Made by a program: the position numbers and the translations under genes. A stretch of DNA of 64,000 bases from Bacteroidia bacterium (GTDB lineage Bacteria; Bacteroidota; Bacteroidia; UBA8524): positions 3,917-67,916 of the forward strand of contig JAMIFM010000020.1 of the NCBI GenBank assembly GCA_035906255.1. The letters run 5' to 3'. This document shows positions 2,423-9,122 of the stretch, piece by piece; positions within the stretch are counted from its first letter, which is position 1; each line of letters begins with the position of its first letter. The notes below the pieces were generated by a model. It had not been told where the DNA came from. It saw only the letters and a list, made by a program, of their open reading frames with translations, and ran no database searches.

Positions 2423-4102
2423 CTAACCCATTTGTGAGGTTTGGCCTTGCAAACGCTCTTTAATATCCAAACGGTGTTTGCGTGCGGTATCTTTAGCAAT
2501 ATCATATCCTGCATCAGCGTGGCGGATAACACCCATAGCCGGGTCGTTGTGCAGCACACGGTGCAAACGACGTTCAGCATCCTCAGTACCATCGGCTACA
2601 ATTACCATACCGGCATGGATTGAATAGCCCATACCCACACCGCCACCGTGGTGAATGCTCACCCAACTGGCTCCGCCTGCGGTGTTTATCAATGAGTTTA
2701 GTATCGGCCAATCGGCAATAGCATCGCTACCGTCCATCATGGCTTCGGTTTCGCGGTTAGGCGATGCCACCGAACCGGTATCCAAATGGTCGCGGCCAAT
2801 TACAATGGGGGCTTTTACTTTACCTTCTTTCACCAAGTTGTTAAAGGCAATGCCTGCCTTTTCACGTTCACCTTGTCCCAACCAGCAAATGCGAGCTGGC
2901 AATCCCTGAAACTCAATTTTTTCCTGCGCCATTTTTATCCAACGGTGCAAGCCTTCGTTTTCGGGGAATAACTCAAGAATTACTTTATCGGTTACATAAA
3001 TATCGTTAGGGTCGCCGGATAAAGCCGCCCAACGGAACGGCCCCCTGCCCTCACAAAACTGAGGACGGATAAACGCAGGCACAAAACCGGGGAAATCAAA
3101 AGCGTTTTTCACGCCGTGTTCAAGGGCACGGGCACGCAGGTTATTACCGTAATCAAAAGTAACACTGCCCTTTTTCTGAAACTCAAGCATTAGTTCCACA
3201 TGACGAGCCATGCTTTCATAGCTTAGTTTAATATATTTATCAGGGTCTTCACGACGCAAACGGTCGGCAGCCTCCACATCAATCGTATGCGGGTAGTAAC
3301 CAATCAATGGATCATGCGCACTTGTTTGGTCGGTAAGACTTTCAGGAATAACACCTCTTTCCATCATACGTTGCAACAGGTTAACTGCATTAGCACACAC
3401 ACCTATAGAAACCGCTTTTCCTTCTTCTTTCGCACGAAGTGCCATATCAATACCCTCATCAATGTTACGGGTCATTACATCAAGGTAACGGGTTTGCAAA
3501 CGTTTGCGAATGCGCCATTCTTCAACCTCGGCAGCCAAACAAACACCTTCATTCATGGTGATAGCAAGCGGCTGTGCACCGCCCATACCGCCAAGTCCCG
3601 CAGTTACGTTCAATGTACCCTTTAATGTACCTCCATAATGCTGACGGGCAAGCTCGCCAAAAGTTTCATACGTTCCTTGCACAATCCCTTGCGAACCTAT
3701 ATATATCCAGCTTCCGGCCGTCATTTGGCCGTACATAATCAAACCTTTAGCATCCAACTCCCTAAAGTGTTCCCAAGTAGCCCATTTGGGCACCAGCATA
3801 CTATTTGATAACAGCACACGGGGAGCATCTTTGTGGGTAGGCAATATCCCAACGGGTTTACCGCTTTGTATCAGCAGGGTTTCGTCTTCGTTTAGGTCTT
3901 TCAACGCCTTCACAATCAAATCAAGGCTTTCCCAGTTACGGGCAGCCTTACCCAATCCGCCATATACAATAAGGTCTTCGGGACGTTCGGCCACATCGCT
4001 GTCAAGGTTGTTCATCAACATACGCAAGGCGGCTTCCTGCACCCAACCTTTGCAGGTAAGTGTATTGCCCGTAGGGGTTTTAATATCGTTAATGCTAATC
4101 AT
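2423..4102 (-). CDS. hutU: Urocanate hydratase
   Basis: 559 aa with full-length urocanase similarity, including the NAD-binding GGMGGAQP region and conserved C-terminal [13 protein letters not shown] motif. ATG start. Confidence 0.95.
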
Positions 4103-4181: not shown

Positions 4182-4225
4182 GATTACGATACGGGCAGGA
4201 CTTAAGTCCTGCCCGTATCGTAATC
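4182..4225. promoter_or_regulatory. 44-bp perfect palindrome (22+22, no spacer) in the divergent hutU/fur-family promoter region
   Basis: gattacgatacgggcaggactt|aagtcctgcccgtatcgtaatc. It ends about 36 bp upstream of the -7 box of the Fur-family gene and 80 bp upstream of the hutU start. Confidence 0.6.
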
Positions 4226-4261
4226 TTGAAAGAATGGTATTTCAATGCCGTCACATTTAAG

Positions 4262-4276: not shown

Positions 4277-4708
4277 ATGATGGAAACATCTTTAAATAAA
4301 GTAACCGATACCCTACGCAACCACAAACTGCGCATTACTGATACACGCACCCGTGTGTTGGGGCAATTTATGGAACGCCAACGCGCACTAACGCAAACCG
4401 ACCTTGAGGCTAATTTGGGCAAAGAGTTTGACAGGGTGACTATTTACCGTACACTGCACTCGTTTCTTGAGAGCGGTATTCTGCACAAAATACCCGACGA
4501 TAGCGGTGCTACCCAATACGCCTTGTGTGATAACTGCGACGAGCACGCCCACCACGACGAACACATCCATTTTAAATGTACCAACTGCCAAAAAATTGAG
4601 TGTTTAGACCACTATACCGTCCCAAAATTTGAAGTACCTACAGGTTATACTGTTAAAACCGCTGATTTAGTGGTAACGGGTATATGCAACAGTTGTAGCA
4701 AAAAATAA
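4277..4708 (+). CDS. Fur-family transcriptional regulator, probably Zur (zinc uptake regulator)
   Basis: 143 aa. N-terminal winged-helix DNA-binding region (RITDTRTRVL...TIYRTL) and two CxxC pairs (CDNC...CTNC) plus His-rich HAHHDEH, as in Fur-family proteins. The Zur assignment is inferred from the adjacent COG0523 gene and shared operator motifs. Confidence 0.8.
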   Translation: MMETSLNKVTDTLRNHKLRITDTRTRVLGQFMERQRALTQTDLEANLGKEFDRVTIYRTLHSFLESGILHKIPDDSGATQYALCDNCDEHAHHDEHIHFKCTNCQKIECLDHYTVPKFEVPTGYTVKTADLVVTGICNSCSKK

Positions 4709-4771: not shown

Positions 4772-5536
4772 TTATTTTTCGCGGTGCACATCAAACTCAA
4801 CTTCAGTAGCATTGTTTTTCAAGTCAAAAACTTCTACTACAAGTAAATACTCACCGTCAGGCCACGCATCTTCAAAAACTACAGTTTCATTAAAACTTGC
4901 TGAAGTACCGCTAATATTACCATCTCTATCGAGATAATTAACCTTGGTTGTTTTATTTATTAACTTAATCTCATAGCTCTTTAACGACTCATTGTCGCCA
5001 GCTGTACTTACCAATGTGATAGTTTTGCTACCACCGTGCAAGTGTATCTCACCGCCCGATGGACTTGGAGTTGCGGCTACTGTTAACGTAGGAACAATAG
5101 AATCTAATGAACTTTTAATGGTGATATCGGCCTCTGCAAATTCAGCCTCATTACCGGCCTTGTCAAGCGCATTGATAATCAAATGGTAAGCTCCTGCTGC
5201 TACATCTTGGGGTATATCAATCGCTAAGTTTAATGTATTGCTGGTGCCGGAAATTCCTTCAATTTTAGTATAAGCAAAAGTCGGCGAACCTGTTTTTAAA
5301 TGTGAGTGCCCGTCAAAATCATCGTGTATCTCAATCTTATATTGGCTAAGATCTTTGTTGTCTGTAAAAGTAGCTGATATGTTAATTTTTGCACCCGAAA
5401 CAAATTCCTCCCCAGCAGAAGGGGTTAATAATGTAATTACAGGTTTTGTTGTGTCTTTCTCTTCATCATCTCCTTTATTACAAGCATTAAGAAAAACGAG
5501 TCCTGCGGCTAAAACAAGTATTGTTATTTTTTTCAT
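4772..5536 (-). CDS. Secreted His-rich lipoprotein with two Ig-like repeats (DUF4625-like); probable zinc-starvation protein
   Basis: Start set at MKKITILVLAAGLVFLNAC (lipobox) at 5536, not the TTG at 5587 used in the ORF track. Two internal repeats each carry His clusters (HDDFDGHSH, HLHGG). Sits directly downstream of the COG0523 gene and has its own promoter with TGCAAC-type palindromes. Confidence 0.65.
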   Translation of the reverse strand: MKKITILVLAAGLVFLNACNKGDDEEKDTTKPVITLLTPSAGEEFVSGAKINISATFTDNKDLSQYKIEIHDDFDGHSHLKTGSPTFAYTKIEGISGTSNTLNLAIDIPQDVAAGAYHLIINALDKAGNEAEFAEADITIKSSLDSIVPTLTVAATPSPSGGEIHLHGGSKTITLVSTAGDNESLKSYEIKLINKTTKVNYLDRDGNISGTSASFNETVVFEDAWPDGEYLLVVEVFDLKNNATEVEFDVHREK

Positions 5537-5552
5537 GATTTTCGTTGTTATA

Positions 5553-5594
5553 TGAAACATTGTTGCAAATATAACAAAACGCAACAATGTTGCA
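5553..5594. promoter_or_regulatory. Two copies of the TGCAAC-N3-GTTGCA-like palindrome flanking the -7 box of the lipoprotein promoter
   Basis: TGAAACATTGTTGCA (5553-5567) and CGCAACAATGTTGCA (5580-5594). The minus-strand -7 box TATATTTG corresponds to 5566-5573. Confidence 0.5.
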
Positions 5595-5600
5595 AAAATA

Positions 5601-6791
5601 TTATAATTTAAAAGGGTCGTTAAACACTTTTTTGGCCAAATACATTTTCACTTCTTCGTCCGATAGTGTGCAAGCATCCAGCGATTGTAAAATTTCAACC
5701 CTATCCACCAACTGCCCTATAAACACAATCTCAATCATCCTGTCTCCAAAAACCTTATCCCATTTGCTCTCAATGTGGGCTTGGTTTTCAACAAAAGAGG
5801 CATATCTAATTCTTTCACCGTAGGGCATAGATGCCCACCAAACTCCGGCACTTTCATAGGTAGATTGCGCACCTGCCTGCGACCAAGAAAATGCTACTTG
5901 AGGTTGTGATGCCAACCAAAAAAGCCCTTTTGACCTGATAATACTACCGGGAAACTTTGTTTGCAGGTAGTCCCAAAATCTTTCGGGATGAAAAGGTTTC
6001 CTGCTTCTATACACAAAAGAACTGATACCGTATTCATCGGTTTCGGGCGTGTGTGTATTCAGTAACTCATCATTCCAGCTTTGCATAGCCACCGAACGCT
6101 CAAGATTAAAACGATTAGTGCTCAATATTTTATTTAGTGCCACTTTGCCGTATTGAGTTTTAATAACCTCAGCGTTGGGGTTCATCTTTTTAATGATAGA
6201 CTCTAACAGCAACACATCAGCTTCACTAACCAAATCAATCTTATTTAATAGTATTACATCCGCAAACTCTACCTGCTCAGTCAGCAAACCGGTAAGTGAA
6301 CGCACATCATCTTTATCATTCGTTAAATTCCTGTCCTGTAGCTTTTCAACACTATTGAAGTCTCTAATAAAGTTAAAACAATCCACTACTGTAACCATAG
6401 TATCCAACTTACTAATCGAAGCCAAATCAATCCCCGCCTCCTTATCTTCAAAAGTAAAAGTTTGAGCCACCGGCAAAGGTTCAGAAATCCCCGTACTCTC
6501 AATCAGCAAATAATCAAACCTACCTTCGTTTGCCAGCTTTGTAACCTCTAATATCAAATCTTCACGTAGGGTGCAACAAATACACCCGTTACTCATTTCA
6601 ACCAATTTTTCCTCAGTCTTAGATAACACATCCGATCGTTGCACCAATGAAGCATCCACATTCACCTCTCCCATATCATTAACAATCACAGCAACTTTAA
6701 TACCTTCCTTGTTGTTTAACACATGGTTTAAAAGCGTCGTCTTACCACTTCCCAAAAAGCCAGATAAAACAGTAACAGGTAATTTTTCCAT
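5601..6791 (-). CDS. COG0523-family G3E GTPase (CobW/ZigA/YeiR-like zinc metallochaperone)
   Basis: 396 aa. P-loop [11 protein letters not shown] and the CxCC metal-binding motif (GCICCT) characteristic of COG0523, plus the C-terminal CobW_C-like region. ATG at 6791. Confidence 0.9.
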
Positions 6792-6795
6792 GAAG

Positions 6796-6803
6796 CAAAA
6801 ATA
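6796..6803 (-). promoter_or_regulatory. -7 promoter box (TATTTTTG on minus strand) for the COG0523 gene
   Basis: The box ends 4 nt before the ATG at 6791, predicting a leaderless transcript. The palindromic operator lies immediately upstream. Confidence 0.5.
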
Positions 6804-6810
6804 AACAAAA

Positions 6811-6845
6811 CTTAACTAAATGCAGCAATGTTGCATTTAGTTAAG
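6811..6845. promoter_or_regulatory. 35-bp near-perfect palindrome, candidate Zur-type operator (core TGCAGCAATGTTGCA)
   Basis: cttaactaaatgcagcaa|tgttgcatttagttaag with one mismatch in 17 paired positions. It overlaps the -33 region of the COG0523 promoter and lies in the divergent region shared with the ECF sigma gene. Confidence 0.6.
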
Positions 6846-6969
6846 TCACATATAAAAGTTCTTTTTGAATAAATTTATAGAAGTTTGTTTGGCGGGAAAC
6901 TTTTTTTGAGCTAATTACAACCCGCCCGAACAAAATGGCGTTTAATACATAAACACACTGCCCTTAGCT

Positions 6970-7527
6970 ATGATAAGCGAAACCGAACTGATAAAAGGAT
7001 GCGTGAATAACGACAGGTTGTACCAAAAACATTTGTACGACAGGTATGCACGCAAAATGCTATCGGTGTGTTTGTGTTATGCAAGAGACAGGTATGAGGC
7101 CGAGAATATATTACAGGAAGGGTTTATAAAGATTTTTGAGAACCTTAAAAACTATAAACCTGTGGGCAGTTTTGAAGGATGGATACGTCGCATAATTGTA
7201 AACACAGCCACCGATTACTACCGCAAAATGAAGCGGATTAAATACATAGAAGTGGATGTTGATGAGGCCGAGCACAAAGTATCGACCCTTGATATTGACA
7301 AATTTGCCACCGAGGATATAGTAGGTGCCATACAACGGTTGCCCGAAGGAGGAAGAATGGTATTTACCCTGTTTGCGGTAGAAGGCTTTAGCCATGCTGA
7401 AATTGCAGAGCAGTTGGGTATATCAGTGGGTACTTCAAAATCACAATACGCAAGAGCCCGTACCCTGCTGCAAACGATGTTGAAGAACAGCGAACGGAAT
7501 TTTTTTTTAAAACATAATATAGTTTAA
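6970..7527 (+). CDS. RNA polymerase ECF-type sigma-70 factor
   Basis: 185 aa with sigma-70 region 2 (YDRYARKMLSVCLCYARDRYEAENILQEGFIKIF) and region 4 HTH (FSHAEIAEQLGISVGTSKSQYARAR). Confidence 0.9.
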   Translation: MISETELIKGCVNNDRLYQKHLYDRYARKMLSVCLCYARDRYEAENILQEGFIKIFENLKNYKPVGSFEGWIRRIIVNTATDYYRKMKRIKYIEVDVDEAEHKVSTLDIDKFATEDIVGAIQRLPEGGRMVFTLFAVEGFSHAEIAEQLGISVGTSKSQYARARTLLQTMLKNSERNFFLKHNIV

Positions 7528-7560
7528 GGCACTGAGTAGCGACCATAAACAGACAAAACG

Positions 7561-8949
7561 ATGAAAATTGTTAATTTAAATGAATACAGCGAAGGGGAAG
7601 GTTTGAGGAACAAGCTGCGCCAGCGGATTGATAACTTTGAACCCGAACTGTCGGATAGCCTTTGGGACCGTATTCACCACGAAATGGACCAAAAGGAAAC
7701 ACAACGCAAAAAGCGTTTCCTTTGGTGGTTCTCGTCGGTGGCGGTAGTAGTGCTGGCCAGCGGCATAATAACGTTTACTATGGTAAATAATGGCGGGCAA
7801 CCACAAATGGTTCAACAGCCAACAATTACCGTACCCGCCCCCGCACAAAACGAAGTTGGTGCATCACAGGCTCAGCAAGTCACAACAACGCCTGCAACCG
7901 TTTCACCTTCAACATCAGCACCGGTAATTACTGATGCAGCAACACCTGCAAATAGTAATGGAAGCGGAAACAATGGAGGCACAACAACTCCCCGTTATAC
8001 AGCACCCGCAGCAGAGACATCTCCTGCTGTTTTGCCCGATGTAACCGAAAGCCGCCCTGCAACGGTTGAACCCGCTCCTGTTGAAAAACAAGCTATACCG
8101 CCTGCACCTGAAAACACCCAAGCTCCAATAGTAGATGATAACAATACTACTATTGAAGAACAAATCACCCCCTCTACTGAAACTAATGAAAAGACAGAGC
8201 AAGAGGAAACCGAAAAGGGTAAAGGCAAGACGGGCGAGAAAGACACCAAAGCCAATTATAACAAATGGTTTATTGGCGTAGTATATGGGTATGCCCAAAA
8301 CAACCGTACCGTTACCGATGTGAACCCCACTTACGGATGGGCATCAGCCGCTGAACGTAATAAATACGAACACAGCGGAATGGCTAAAACGTATGGCATA
8401 CAAATGGGATATATGGCTACAAAAAATATCTTTATAAAATCAGGGTTAAATATTTACACAACAACTGAGATTGTAAAGTACGATATCCACCGTCGCAAAC
8501 TTCAACAAGGTGGGCAACCTGATGACCCCATCTATGGAAATAAAATTGACAGCGTTGCAGTGGGCACTACTACTGCCCATCAAAATATTTATTCATACAT
8601 ACAAATTCCGCTTGAAGTAGGATTTGTACAGGATATAAACAAACACTGGGGCTTTAACGTATCGGCAGGTGCTGCTTACAACATCCTTAATAACTACAAT
8701 TATTACCTATACGAACCACAATTTGGCAATGCTTTTATACCATCAAGCAGTTCAAATACCAACTATTTCCAAAACTATGTAATGGTATCGGGTAATGCAG
8801 GTTTGCACTACAACATCAGCAAAAACTGGCGTGCTTTGGCAGGATTTAACTACCGCAGGGCAGTTACATCAGCCGCTACCAAAGAAACCCATGTTGATGT
8901 GCGCCCTTGGTCAGTAGGCGGTAATTTAGCACTGGCATTTAGTTTTTAA
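7561..8949 (+). CDS. Putative anti-sigma factor: cytoplasmic N-domain, one TM helix, Pro/Thr-rich linker and C-terminal outer-membrane beta-barrel-like domain
   Basis: Begins immediately downstream of the ECF sigma gene. TM segment FLWWFSSVAVVVLASGIITF, then a roughly 200-aa low-complexity P/T/A/E-rich segment, and a C-terminal region with alternating aromatic beta-strands ending ...NLALAFSF (terminal Phe). Confidence 0.6.
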   Translation: MKIVNLNEYSEGEGLRNKLRQRIDNFEPELSDSLWDRIHHEMDQKETQRKKRFLWWFSSVAVVVLASGIITFTMVNNGGQPQMVQQPTITVPAPAQNEVGASQAQQVTTTPATVSPSTSAPVITDAATPANSNGSGNNGGTTTPRYTAPAAETSPAVLPDVTESRPATVEPAPVEKQAIPPAPENTQAPIVDDNNTTIEEQITPSTETNEKTEQEETEKGKGKTGEKDTKANYNKWFIGVVYGYAQNNRTVTDVNPTYGWASAAERNKYEHSGMAKTYGIQMGYMATKNIFIKSGLNIYTTTEIVKYDIHRRKLQQGGQPDDPIYGNKIDSVAVGTTTAHQNIYSYIQIPLEVGFVQDINKHWGFNVSAGAAYNILNNYNYYLYEPQFGNAFIPSSSSNTNYFQNYVMVSGNAGLHYNISKNWRALAGFNYRRAVTSAATKETHVDVRPWSVGGNLALAFSF

Positions 8950-8993
8950 AAAATACAAGTCGAACAAATAATTTTTTTTCATTGGTTAGGTGT

Positions 8994-9029
8994 AAATCCC
9001 CGAAACAGTAATGTTTTCGGGGATTTTTT
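8994..9029 (+). terminator. Rho-independent terminator after the anti-sigma gene
   Basis: aaatccccgaaaca-gtaatg-ttttcggggatttttt: GC-containing stem followed by a T-run. Confidence 0.8.
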
Positions 9030-9089
9030 AGTTATCAAACCACCCGCAAAAATTCGATGAATAAATTTTTTTATTCGGTAACCAATGTT

Positions 9090-9097
9090 TAACTTTG
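9090..9097 (+). promoter_or_regulatory. -7 promoter box TAACTTTG for the S8 peptidase gene
   Basis: Lies 25 nt upstream of the ATG at 9123. Confidence 0.45.
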
Positions 9098-9122
9098 ATA
9101 TATCGTCTTGTTAACAAACGAA

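Follow-up and report, generated by a model that had tools for sequence, protein, structure and literature searches.

Zur regulons have been well characterised in Proteobacteria, Firmicutes, Actinobacteria and Cyanobacteria. The Zur box of Bacillus subtilis has a 7-1-7 core (TCGTAAT-n-ATTACGA) within AAATCGTAATnATTACGATTT, and the structure of the Escherichia coli Zur-znuABC operator complex (4mtd) contains a dimer of dimers on about 31 bp. A review of Zur distinguishes 7-1-7 and 23-bp classes of box, quotes the E. coli consensus as TRWNAYRWTATAWYRTNWCA and documents footprints that are longer than one dimer (PMC6103462). In Cupriavidus metallidurans most targets carry one Zur box and the cobW1 operon carries two, two boxes being associated with tighter repression (PMC10882993). 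No Zur box from Bacteroidota was found in a comparative study of COG0523 (PMC2770081), the Zur review (PMC6103462), reviews of metallostasis from 2024 (PMC11672702) and of gut metals from 2025 (PMC12574912) or further full-text searches, RegPrecise lying outside their scope. We describe here a recurrent palindrome, TGCAAC-N3-GTTGCA, in 64,000 nucleotides from a Bacteroidia bacterium of lineage UBA8524 (assembly GCA_035906255.1, contig JAMIFM010000020.1, positions 3,917 to 67,916). This whole stretch is referred to as the window, and loci from other genomes are cited by our own numbers (L001 onwards).

The five copies of the palindrome are very probably Zur boxes, read by the zinc-loaded dimer of a predicted Fur-family regulator encoded at 4277-4708. 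The idea of a zinc regulon came from the position of this gene beside COG0523 and receptor genes, and the Zur-box reading follows from the occurrence of the core, its conservation, the gene families behind it and its register with the -7 promoter box. We would like to emphasize that we infer the identity of the binder, its response to zinc and the sign of its action (repression rather than activation) from sequence. A lineage-specific Zur box of this kind is an expected type of switch, for whose sequence we found no published description.

Occurrence and consensus of the palindrome in the window

The exact pattern TGCAACNNNGTTGCA occurs once in the 64 kb, at 12080-12094. With at most one mismatch to TGCAAC-N3-GTTGCA there are five matches, starting at 5553, 5580, 6821, 12080 and 15545, all of them intergenic, against a chance level of 0.44; none of 100 dinucleotide-preserving shuffles gave five copies. 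Allowing two mismatches adds only background (seven matches, 5.3 expected). An earlier note on this DNA had reported the same palindromic core at five places: all five positions hold, but the copies are not identical, since one is exact and four carry one mismatch. With a 27-bp weight matrix, for which other genomes supplied the training sites, the five reach 24-36 bits and no other position in the window reaches 8 bits, in keeping with the note's statement that the core is missing from the other intergenic regions.

In summary form the consensus is TATAAATGCAACAnTGTTGCATTTATA, a 7-1-7 inverted repeat, and the symmetrised consensus of 30 independent sites from other genomes is TATAAATGCAACAaTGTTGCATTTATA, with A/T-rich flanks and about 27 bp overall. 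The repeat is read as 7-1-7 because the consensus of the N3 spacer is A-N-T. Its layout agrees with that of a Fur-family A/T-rich inverted repeat (7-1-7, about 15-23 bp).

Conservation of the palindrome in other genomes

A scan with the COG0523 protein, taking one genome per species, gave 80 loci (875 kb) with a top identity of only 62%. The core, at no more than one mismatch, is present in 30 copies in these 875 kb, nearly all from Bacteroidota, including the genera Algoriphagus, Lunatimonas, Emticicia, Ohtaekwangia, Porifericola, Pedobacter, Sphingobacterium, Chitinophaga and Litoribacter. The motif precedes COG0523/ZigA orthologues in Cytophagales, Sphingobacteriales and Chitinophagales and in one Flavobacterium; no site was found within 400 bp upstream in the Flavobacteriales COG0523 loci L049 and L066. 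Copies lie 30-600 bp upstream of the COG0523 gene, the farther ones preceding a small gene that heads the operon. Two types of such gene were observed: one encodes a secreted-looking protein of about 150 amino acids with the conserved segment RLWELF..TTFQEKFNK (L001-L008, L012, L018), and the other a MerC-like membrane protein of 115-132 amino acids (L007, L009, L014, L017, L209).

Three syntenic relatives (L202, L204 and L206, with 83%, 79% and 71% regulator identity) allow individual promoters to be compared, the nearest named relative being the metagenome-assembled genome GCA_008933805.1 (83% regulator identity). As a group, the three retain the double site before the DUF4625 lipoprotein gene, the flavoprotein site and the receptor site. 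Even deviations from the consensus are kept: the DUF4625 pair, 27 bp apart and with its TGAAAC deviation, in L202 and L206, and the receptor site with its TGCAAT deviation in L202. The conservation at orthologous promoters by which the earlier note had proposed to judge the motif is thus observed at both distances, across many Bacteroidota genera for COG0523 orthologues and, closer by, in L202, L204 and L206 for the promoters just listed.

In L202 and L206 the zur-DUF4625-ECF (extracytoplasmic function) sigma region is otherwise syntenic but has neither the COG0523 gene nor the operator of that gene. The gene together with its operator at 6810-6846 (5601-6846 in all) would therefore be a lineage-specific insertion or retention, which points to recent gain or loss of COG0523 together with its promoter.

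Two further observations concern the range of the motif. TGCAAC-N3-GTTGCA-like sequences stand directly before a COG0523 gene or a ZIP-COG0523 operon in two contigs of 62% G+C labelled Verrucomicrobiia and Thiobacillus (L019, 4053-4067; L062, 713-727 and 752-766), so that either the motif may reach beyond Bacteroidota or these contigs may be mis-binned. In Zobellia galactanivorans, the divergent region between a Fur-family gene and a flavoprotein gene contains a symmetric variant, TTATTGCGAC-AGC-TTCGCAATAA (TGCGAC...TCGCA; L210, about 2943-2965), in which positions +/-4 have changed jointly from A.T to G.C. This paired change hints that regulator and site have co-evolved.

A repeated intergenic palindrome, some copies of which are long, might also represent a small mobile or repetitive element, similar to repetitive extragenic palindromic sequences or miniature inverted-repeat transposable elements, that has come to lie near these genes by chance. 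Copies of the palindrome differ in their flanks, occupy orthologous positions in different genera, and keep a fixed register with the -7 box ahead of a functionally coherent gene set; we give this explanation almost no credence. The window by itself leads to the same rejection, in that its 64 kb contain five copies, each at a promoter of the coherent set and with flanks of its own.

Genes downstream of the palindrome

Metagenome contigs were also scanned with the motif alone (AAATGCAACNNNGTTGCATTT, a 21-bp pattern with 18 fixed bases), which gave at least 120 loci. Downstream genes were taken as the longest ATG open reading frame (ORF) starting within 300 bp on either side, and the resulting 132 ORFs were scanned against Pfam; the counts that follow refer to the matches listed. 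The most frequent family was FUR (10/132), followed by MerC (9), cobW (8), Pyr_redox_2 (8), ZnuA (6), receptors with CarboxypepD_reg and Plug domains, an architecture shared with the window receptor (5), ZIP (4), ABC_tran (4) and GTP cyclohydrolase II (3). Families such as ZnuA, ZIP and cobW indicate a zinc-starvation regulon rather than one for iron or peroxide. Placement before zinc-acquisition and zinc-sparing genes is a feature of many genomes. The proposal that the motif controls metal-homeostasis genes, and would be enriched before them, is supported in that a scan by motif only lands before zinc-homeostasis families, indicating zinc rather than iron.

The eight Pyr_redox_2 ORFs are orthologues of the window flavoprotein (53-64% identity). 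A search for loci based on the flavoprotein, blind to the motif, found its gene paired divergently with a Fur-family gene in Adhaeribacter and Zobellia and immediately preceded by COG0523 in Sphingobacterium; in a Flavobacterium it is part of a FUR-MerC-cobW-flavoprotein-receptor cluster with a double site. Flavoprotein orthologues occur in Zur/COG0523 clusters in L013, L016, L207, L209 and L210. This protein, with the motif CPYCHG, is a recurrent member of the putative Bacteroidota zinc regulon and is annotated as 'NAD(P)/FAD-dependent oxidoreductase' or 'thioredoxin reductase'.

Position of the sites relative to predicted promoters

The sigma-A promoter of Bacteroidota, known from work on Bacteroides and Flavobacterium, consists of a -33 TTG and a -7 TAnnTTTG, with a canonical spacing of 19 nt. 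Promoters were called here by a TAnnTTTG match alone, a sigma-70 promoter scan of the window having performed near chance level, and offsets are given from the centre of the site to the first T of the box.

Two sites precede the DUF4625 gene on the minus strand. Site 1 (5553-5567, TGAAACATTGTTGCA, 26.3 bits), the gene-proximal one, is fused to the -7 box at 5566-5573, the minus strand reading TATATTTGCAAC (offset -13). Site 2 (5580-5594, CGCAACAATGTTGCA, 25.6 bits), at a distance of 27 bp from site 1, precedes the same box by 6 bp and is also fused to a second -7-like box at 5593-5600 (offsets +14 and -13). For the COG0523/ZigA-like operator, likewise on the minus strand (6810-6846, core 6821-6835, TGCAGCAATGTTGCA, 23.9 bits), the box at 6796-6803 is 25 bp from the site centre (offset +25), with 4 nt between its end and the ATG at 6791. 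The flavoprotein operator, on the plus strand (12064-12110, exact core 12080-12094, 36.1 bits, offset +17), holds its box at 12104-12111 within the right arm of a longer palindrome, again ending 4 nt before the ATG, here at 12116. Finally, the operator of the TonB-dependent receptor (15545-15559, minus strand, TGCAATATTGTTGCA, 30.7 bits, offset +15) is 7 bp upstream of the box at 15530-15537. The gaps between core and box in the window (2-bp overlap, 6, 17, 9 and 7 bp) agree with the earlier description of a core 7-17 bp upstream of, or overlapping, TAnnTTTG.

The same register is seen elsewhere. Across the COG0523 loci and the window, offsets fall into three groups, +24 to +26 (15 sites), +14 to +18 (8 sites) and -13 (9 sites), and the predicted box is always on the strand of the downstream gene. 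In the metagenome set listed, 47 of 60 boxes lie at +14 to +28 with a peak at +25. For the +25 class, the TTG of the right half-site TGTTGCA falls 19 nt before the box, and in the -13 class box and operator share bases (TAnnTTTGCAAC); many COG0523 promoters combine one site of each of these two types, 36-39 bp apart. These fixed offsets bring a site into overlap with one of three parts of the promoter, namely the -33 element, the spacer, or the region of the -7 box and the start, so that, as judged by motifs only, the sites coincide with the recognition elements of RNA polymerase. The sharply fixed offsets strengthen the proposed geometry of occlusion at -33/-7 and support an arrangement of the kind expected of a repressor that would exclude RNA polymerase.

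A separate observation concerns the start codons. The arrangement TAnnTTTG-N4-ATG has two cases in the 64 kb, before COG0523 (TATTTTTGCTTCATG, 6789-6803) and before the flavoprotein (TATTTTTGCATTATG, 12104-12118), and the flavoprotein gene of Chitinophaga agrisoli has TATATTTGCAACATG (L208, about 2985-3003). This suggests that the predicted COG0523 and flavoprotein mRNAs are leaderless or nearly so.

The candidate regulator

The candidate Zur, a Fur-family protein of 143 amino acids, is encoded at 4277-4708 on the plus strand (Pfam FUR, 5.8e-11). No NCBIfam equivalog comes near its cutoff for this protein. Its closest solved relative is Mycobacterium tuberculosis Zur (2o03, 1.7e-6), followed by B. 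subtilis PerR, and its homologues are all from Bacteroidota, labelled 'transcriptional repressor' or 'ferric uptake regulator' and in a single case 'Zur'. The label Zur is accordingly given because of the regulon and not on sequence alone. Eight residues are invariant in 19 of 19 family members (C84, H96, H98, C101, C104, C109, C137 and C140). In other Fur-family proteins the counterpart of the two CxxC pairs would be the structural zinc site. The sensing site of Zur proteins is made up of Asp/Cys/His/His, a Cys ahead of the His cluster being typical, and the Cys followed by H-x-H before the CxxC pairs appears to resemble a site of this type.

Linkage between Fur-family genes and sites is found in at least seven unrelated loci. 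For example, the Fur-family gene adjoins the sites in the window; in Chitinophaga (L017, L040) the divergent promoter of the COG0523 operon is also that of the Fur-family gene, and in a Flavobacterium this gene comes first in the cluster. Moreover, ten Fur-family genes stand directly behind the motif among the matches listed. A Fur-family regulator with apparent Zur-type metal sites is therefore encoded adjacent to the sites or behind one, and the motif is assigned to the 4277-4708 protein because of this co-localisation and the apparent autoregulation.

The motif could instead be bound by a factor of another family, such as ArsR/SmtB, MerR or Rrf2, with the Fur-family gene being just one of its targets. 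Two Rrf2 genes do lie behind the motif among the matches listed, and the regulator gene of the window has no site of its own. Against this, FUR is the most frequent family behind the motif, Fur-family genes are site-linked in all the unrelated loci just mentioned, and the A/T-rich 7-1-7 layout is that of a Fur-family box. We consider a binder from another family quite improbable.

It must also be weighed whether the regulator, as a member of the Fur family, responds to iron (as Fur does), to peroxide (as PerR does) or to a metal other than zinc. Its scores against the Fur, PerR and Zur models are similar and always far below the cutoffs, PerR is its second solved relative, and TonB-dependent receptors and a disulfide-reductase-like flavoprotein could suit a regulon for iron or redox control. 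What lies behind the motif, however, are hallmark zinc genes (ZnuA, ZIP, COG0523/ZigA and GTP cyclohydrolase II paralogues), and the top families listed include none for siderophores, haem, catalase or peroxidase. The receptor has ZnuD as its top NCBIfam match, and the Cys that precedes the His cluster, typical of Zur, is invariant in the family. A non-zinc regulator accordingly has, in our view, only a slight chance of being the correct reading. The iron Fur box, whose consensus is GATAATGATAATCATTATC, was rejected as a candidate in its own right: the core TGCAACA differs from Fur hexamers, and the families are zinc-related.

Long palindromes with co-varying arms

Two of the operators are embedded in much longer inverted repeats. 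The COG0523 core sits in a 37-bp palindrome (6810-6846) with arms of 15-16 nt (DNA fold -13.9 kcal/mol, z -6.05), and the flavoprotein operator (12064-12110) is a perfect 47-bp palindrome with 22-nt arms, 100% complementary, around a 3-nt centre (-20.5 kcal/mol, z -6.7). These are two of only six perfect palindromes with arms of at least 13 nt in the 64 kb. The measured arms confirm that both sites extend as inverted repeats, as had been noted. They do not fit an operator that is simply longer, because the sequences of the arms are not conserved between sites and vary in a compensatory manner.

In 33 of the 113 distinct metagenome sites listed the palindrome continues for at least 4 consecutive bp beyond the 21-bp pattern, and in 20 (about 18%) for at least 7 bp, against about 2 and about 0.3 expected from a flank-swap control. 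The long forms are perfect palindromes of 35-55 bp whose flank sequences are not conserved between sites. Flavoprotein sites are prominent, with extension by at least 7 bp in 6 of 8, compared with 15 of 112 others among the sites listed (Fisher p = 3e-4); arms at 12 flavoprotein promoters measure 9-26 nt and reach at least 16 nt in nine. When the arms of the window, L202, L206 and L204 are compared, six positions have changed on both sides with complementarity kept. In the arm alignment 93% of cells are paired, compared with 42-49% once the two arms are shifted against each other by 1-3 columns, and six doubly changed pairs were reached in only 2 of 500 shuffles. A second repressor dimer on the long arms predicts conserved flank bases; none were seen, and this candidate was rejected.

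Such observations raise the question of whether the palindromes act mainly as hairpins (an RNA terminator or insulator, or a DNA cruciform), with conservation of sequence being secondary. Besides the two long hairpins of the window, the frequent extension and the compensatory changes in the arms, this is favoured by a terminator scan that marks 6847-6809 and 5594-5580 on the minus strand, by a co-directional upstream gene in about 9 of 12 flavoprotein loci, and by the A-runs and T-runs that end several arms. It is the core, however, and not the arms that is conserved across orders, and a long stem is lacking at three of the window's five sites and at the majority of those elsewhere. Of the 120 metagenome sites listed, only 2 are flanked by convergent ORFs, and divergent gene pairs, too, can enclose long arms (L163, L207 and the COG0523 site of the window). 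Strand-specific G.U tolerance, sought in the arms as a sign of RNA hairpins, was absent, the stems are A/T-rich with centres of 1-3 nt, and no Rfam family matches: the only Rfam hits in the window were sub-threshold, to hairpin-like animal microRNAs (4182-4227, 6797-6864, 12060-12113). We therefore regard hairpins as very unlikely to be the main function. An intrinsic terminator was likewise rejected, given the few long stems, their A/T-rich composition and the two convergent sites; it is possible that the flavoprotein palindrome has a secondary role as a terminator after the upstream peptidase gene.

One explanation for the long forms is that the Zur box forms the centre of a selected, fully paired palindrome of 35-55 bp at the flavoprotein promoter and at about one-fifth of sites elsewhere. 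This we advance tentatively, regarding it as doubtful. If true, it would imply a second, structure-dependent layer on the same DNA. This layer might be cruciform or hairpin extrusion, in competition with Zur binding or gating it, or the operator might serve in addition as an insulator against read-through. Alternatively, the arms could be kept identical by recurrent intrastrand template switching, a form of concerted evolution of palindrome arms.

Two other long palindromes deserve mention. At 4182-4225, in the divergent gap between the urocanase and Fur-family regulator genes, a perfect, spacerless 44-bp palindrome (GATTACGATACGGGCAGGACTT/AAGTCCTGCCCGTATCGTAATC), described as the longest of the window, is unrelated in sequence to the Zur box and is absent from that place in L202 and L206. 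In L087 (about 7615-7680), each 26-nt arm of a palindrome ends in a -7 box (TATATTTG) that faces outward to a divergent gene, which looks like a fully symmetric bidirectional promoter with a single shared operator.

Genes of the window

The DUF4625 lipoprotein gene (4772-5536, minus strand) had been described as encoding a His-rich lipoprotein; the lipoprotein and its His-rich patch stand, refined by assignment to DUF4625 (Pfam, 1.3e-32). DUF4625 proteins have been proposed as lids of non-SusC TonB-dependent transporters (bioRxiv 10.1101/2023.03.17.533168), and the window protein is a putative lid or partner of such a transporter. The COG0523 GTPase gene (5601-6791, minus strand; Pfam cobW and CobW_C) encodes a protein that reaches 554 bits with the ZigA model of NCBIfam (zinc metallochaperone), a little short of the cutoff of 600. 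On the minus strand at 13143-15512 is the TonB-dependent receptor gene (Pfam Plug, TonB_dep_Rec_b-barrel and CarbopepD_reg_2, with an N-terminal CarboxypepD_reg domain), whose match to ZnuD is far under the cutoff of that model.

The thioredoxin-reductase-like Pyr_redox_2 flavoprotein (12116-13138, plus strand), with a CPYC motif, carries a twin-arginine N-terminal extension of 37 amino acids (12116-12226; TRRDFFKRS and then a hydrophobic stretch). The 340-amino-acid form is common only to the window and its closest relative, L202, the other orthologues having about 300 amino acids and beginning at the equivalent of M38. A Tat (twin-arginine translocation) signal is thus seen, as had been noted, but it is limited to the window lineage and one relative; export may be lineage-specific, or the real start may be 12227.

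Between the predicted Zur targets lies a block (6970-12040) that is conserved in L202, L204 and L206, and that contains the ECF sigma factor gene (6970-7527, plus strand), a putative anti-sigma/beta-barrel protein of 462 amino acids, an S8 peptidase with a type IX secretion system tail and a C1 peptidase. As the sigma factor gene diverges from a promoter predicted to be Zur-controlled, it may be co-regulated.

Proposed mechanism and its assessment

When zinc is sufficient, the repressor would bind the 7-1-7 repeat TGCAACAnTGTTGCA together with its A/T-rich flanks and, each site being interlocked with a predicted sigma-A promoter, RNA polymerase would be shut out. The interlocking would take three forms: the right half-site may provide the -33 TTG, 19 nt ahead of the -7 box; the TTTG of the -7 box may open the left half-site (TAnnTTTGCAAC); or the operator may occupy the spacer between the -33 and -7 elements. 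When zinc is scarce, the repressor would depart and the regulated genes would be transcribed, supplying a metallochaperone of the COG0523/ZigA type, a TonB-dependent receptor together with its probable lid lipoprotein (DUF4625), and the flavoprotein that resembles thioredoxin reductase. The two sites at the DUF4625 promoter would probably bring tighter repression.

Several points weigh against reading the palindromes as Zur boxes. The weight matrix and the metagenome pattern were derived from the motif itself, so that divergent sites are missed and conservation of the core is partly forced. The ORF calls in the metagenome loci, as longest ATG ORFs, are crude, and only 58 of the 132 putative downstream ORFs among the matches listed have a recognisable -7 box. 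By sequence the regulator is about equally close to PerR, Fur and Zur, and the matrix scan found no site upstream of its gene within the window. Arms that co-vary and are not conserved are not explained by a simple operator. As to novelty, the motif may already be catalogued in RegPrecise.

A validated motif would make zinc-starvation regulons readable from Bacteroidota genomes and metagenomes, and the Fur-family paralogue could be renamed Zur. DUF4625 lipoproteins, MerC-like proteins, the protein of about 150 amino acids and the CPYC flavoprotein could then be assigned to zinc physiology. The sites also illustrate how an operator can be built from the unusual -33/-7 promoter elements of the phylum.

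Comparison with described Zur systems

The closest parallels are with the Zur box of B. subtilis. Both are 7-1-7 inverted repeats with AAAT...ATTT flanks, presumably read by a Fur-family dimer, that overlap promoter elements, with a COG0523 gene (yciC in B. subtilis) in the regulon and two boxes at some promoters. They differ in the core (TGCAACA here, TCGTAAT in B. subtilis) and in the promoter that would be occluded, which is of the -33/-7 rather than the -35/-10 type. Unlike in B. subtilis, the Bacteroidota operator, known from its sequence alone, itself appears to provide promoter bases (the -33 TTG or the -7 TTTG). The E. coli system likewise has a palindromic Zur site over a promoter, and the window regulator is recognisably related to its Zur protein (2.5e-4); the E. 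coli consensus is another one, and conserved flanks for a second dimer are not seen here. As in the Zur regulon of C. metallidurans, which belongs to another phylum, COG0523 genes, ZIP/ZupT transporters and TonB receptors are the apparent targets, and double sites are common in Bacteroidota too. The Bacteroidota sigma-A promoter stands in a different relationship, as the element that would be occluded and not as a relative of the operator; the -7 boxes match TAnnTTTG, and the +25 class has its TTG at the canonical 19 nt. Overall, the comparison supports an element that would work in the same way as the Zur boxes of Bacillus, Actinobacteria and Enterobacteria, agreeing with them in silico in its repeat layout, promoter position, zinc-related targets, conservation at orthologous promoters and linked Fur-family regulator, with a core sequence that is different and a fit to the -33/-7 promoter.

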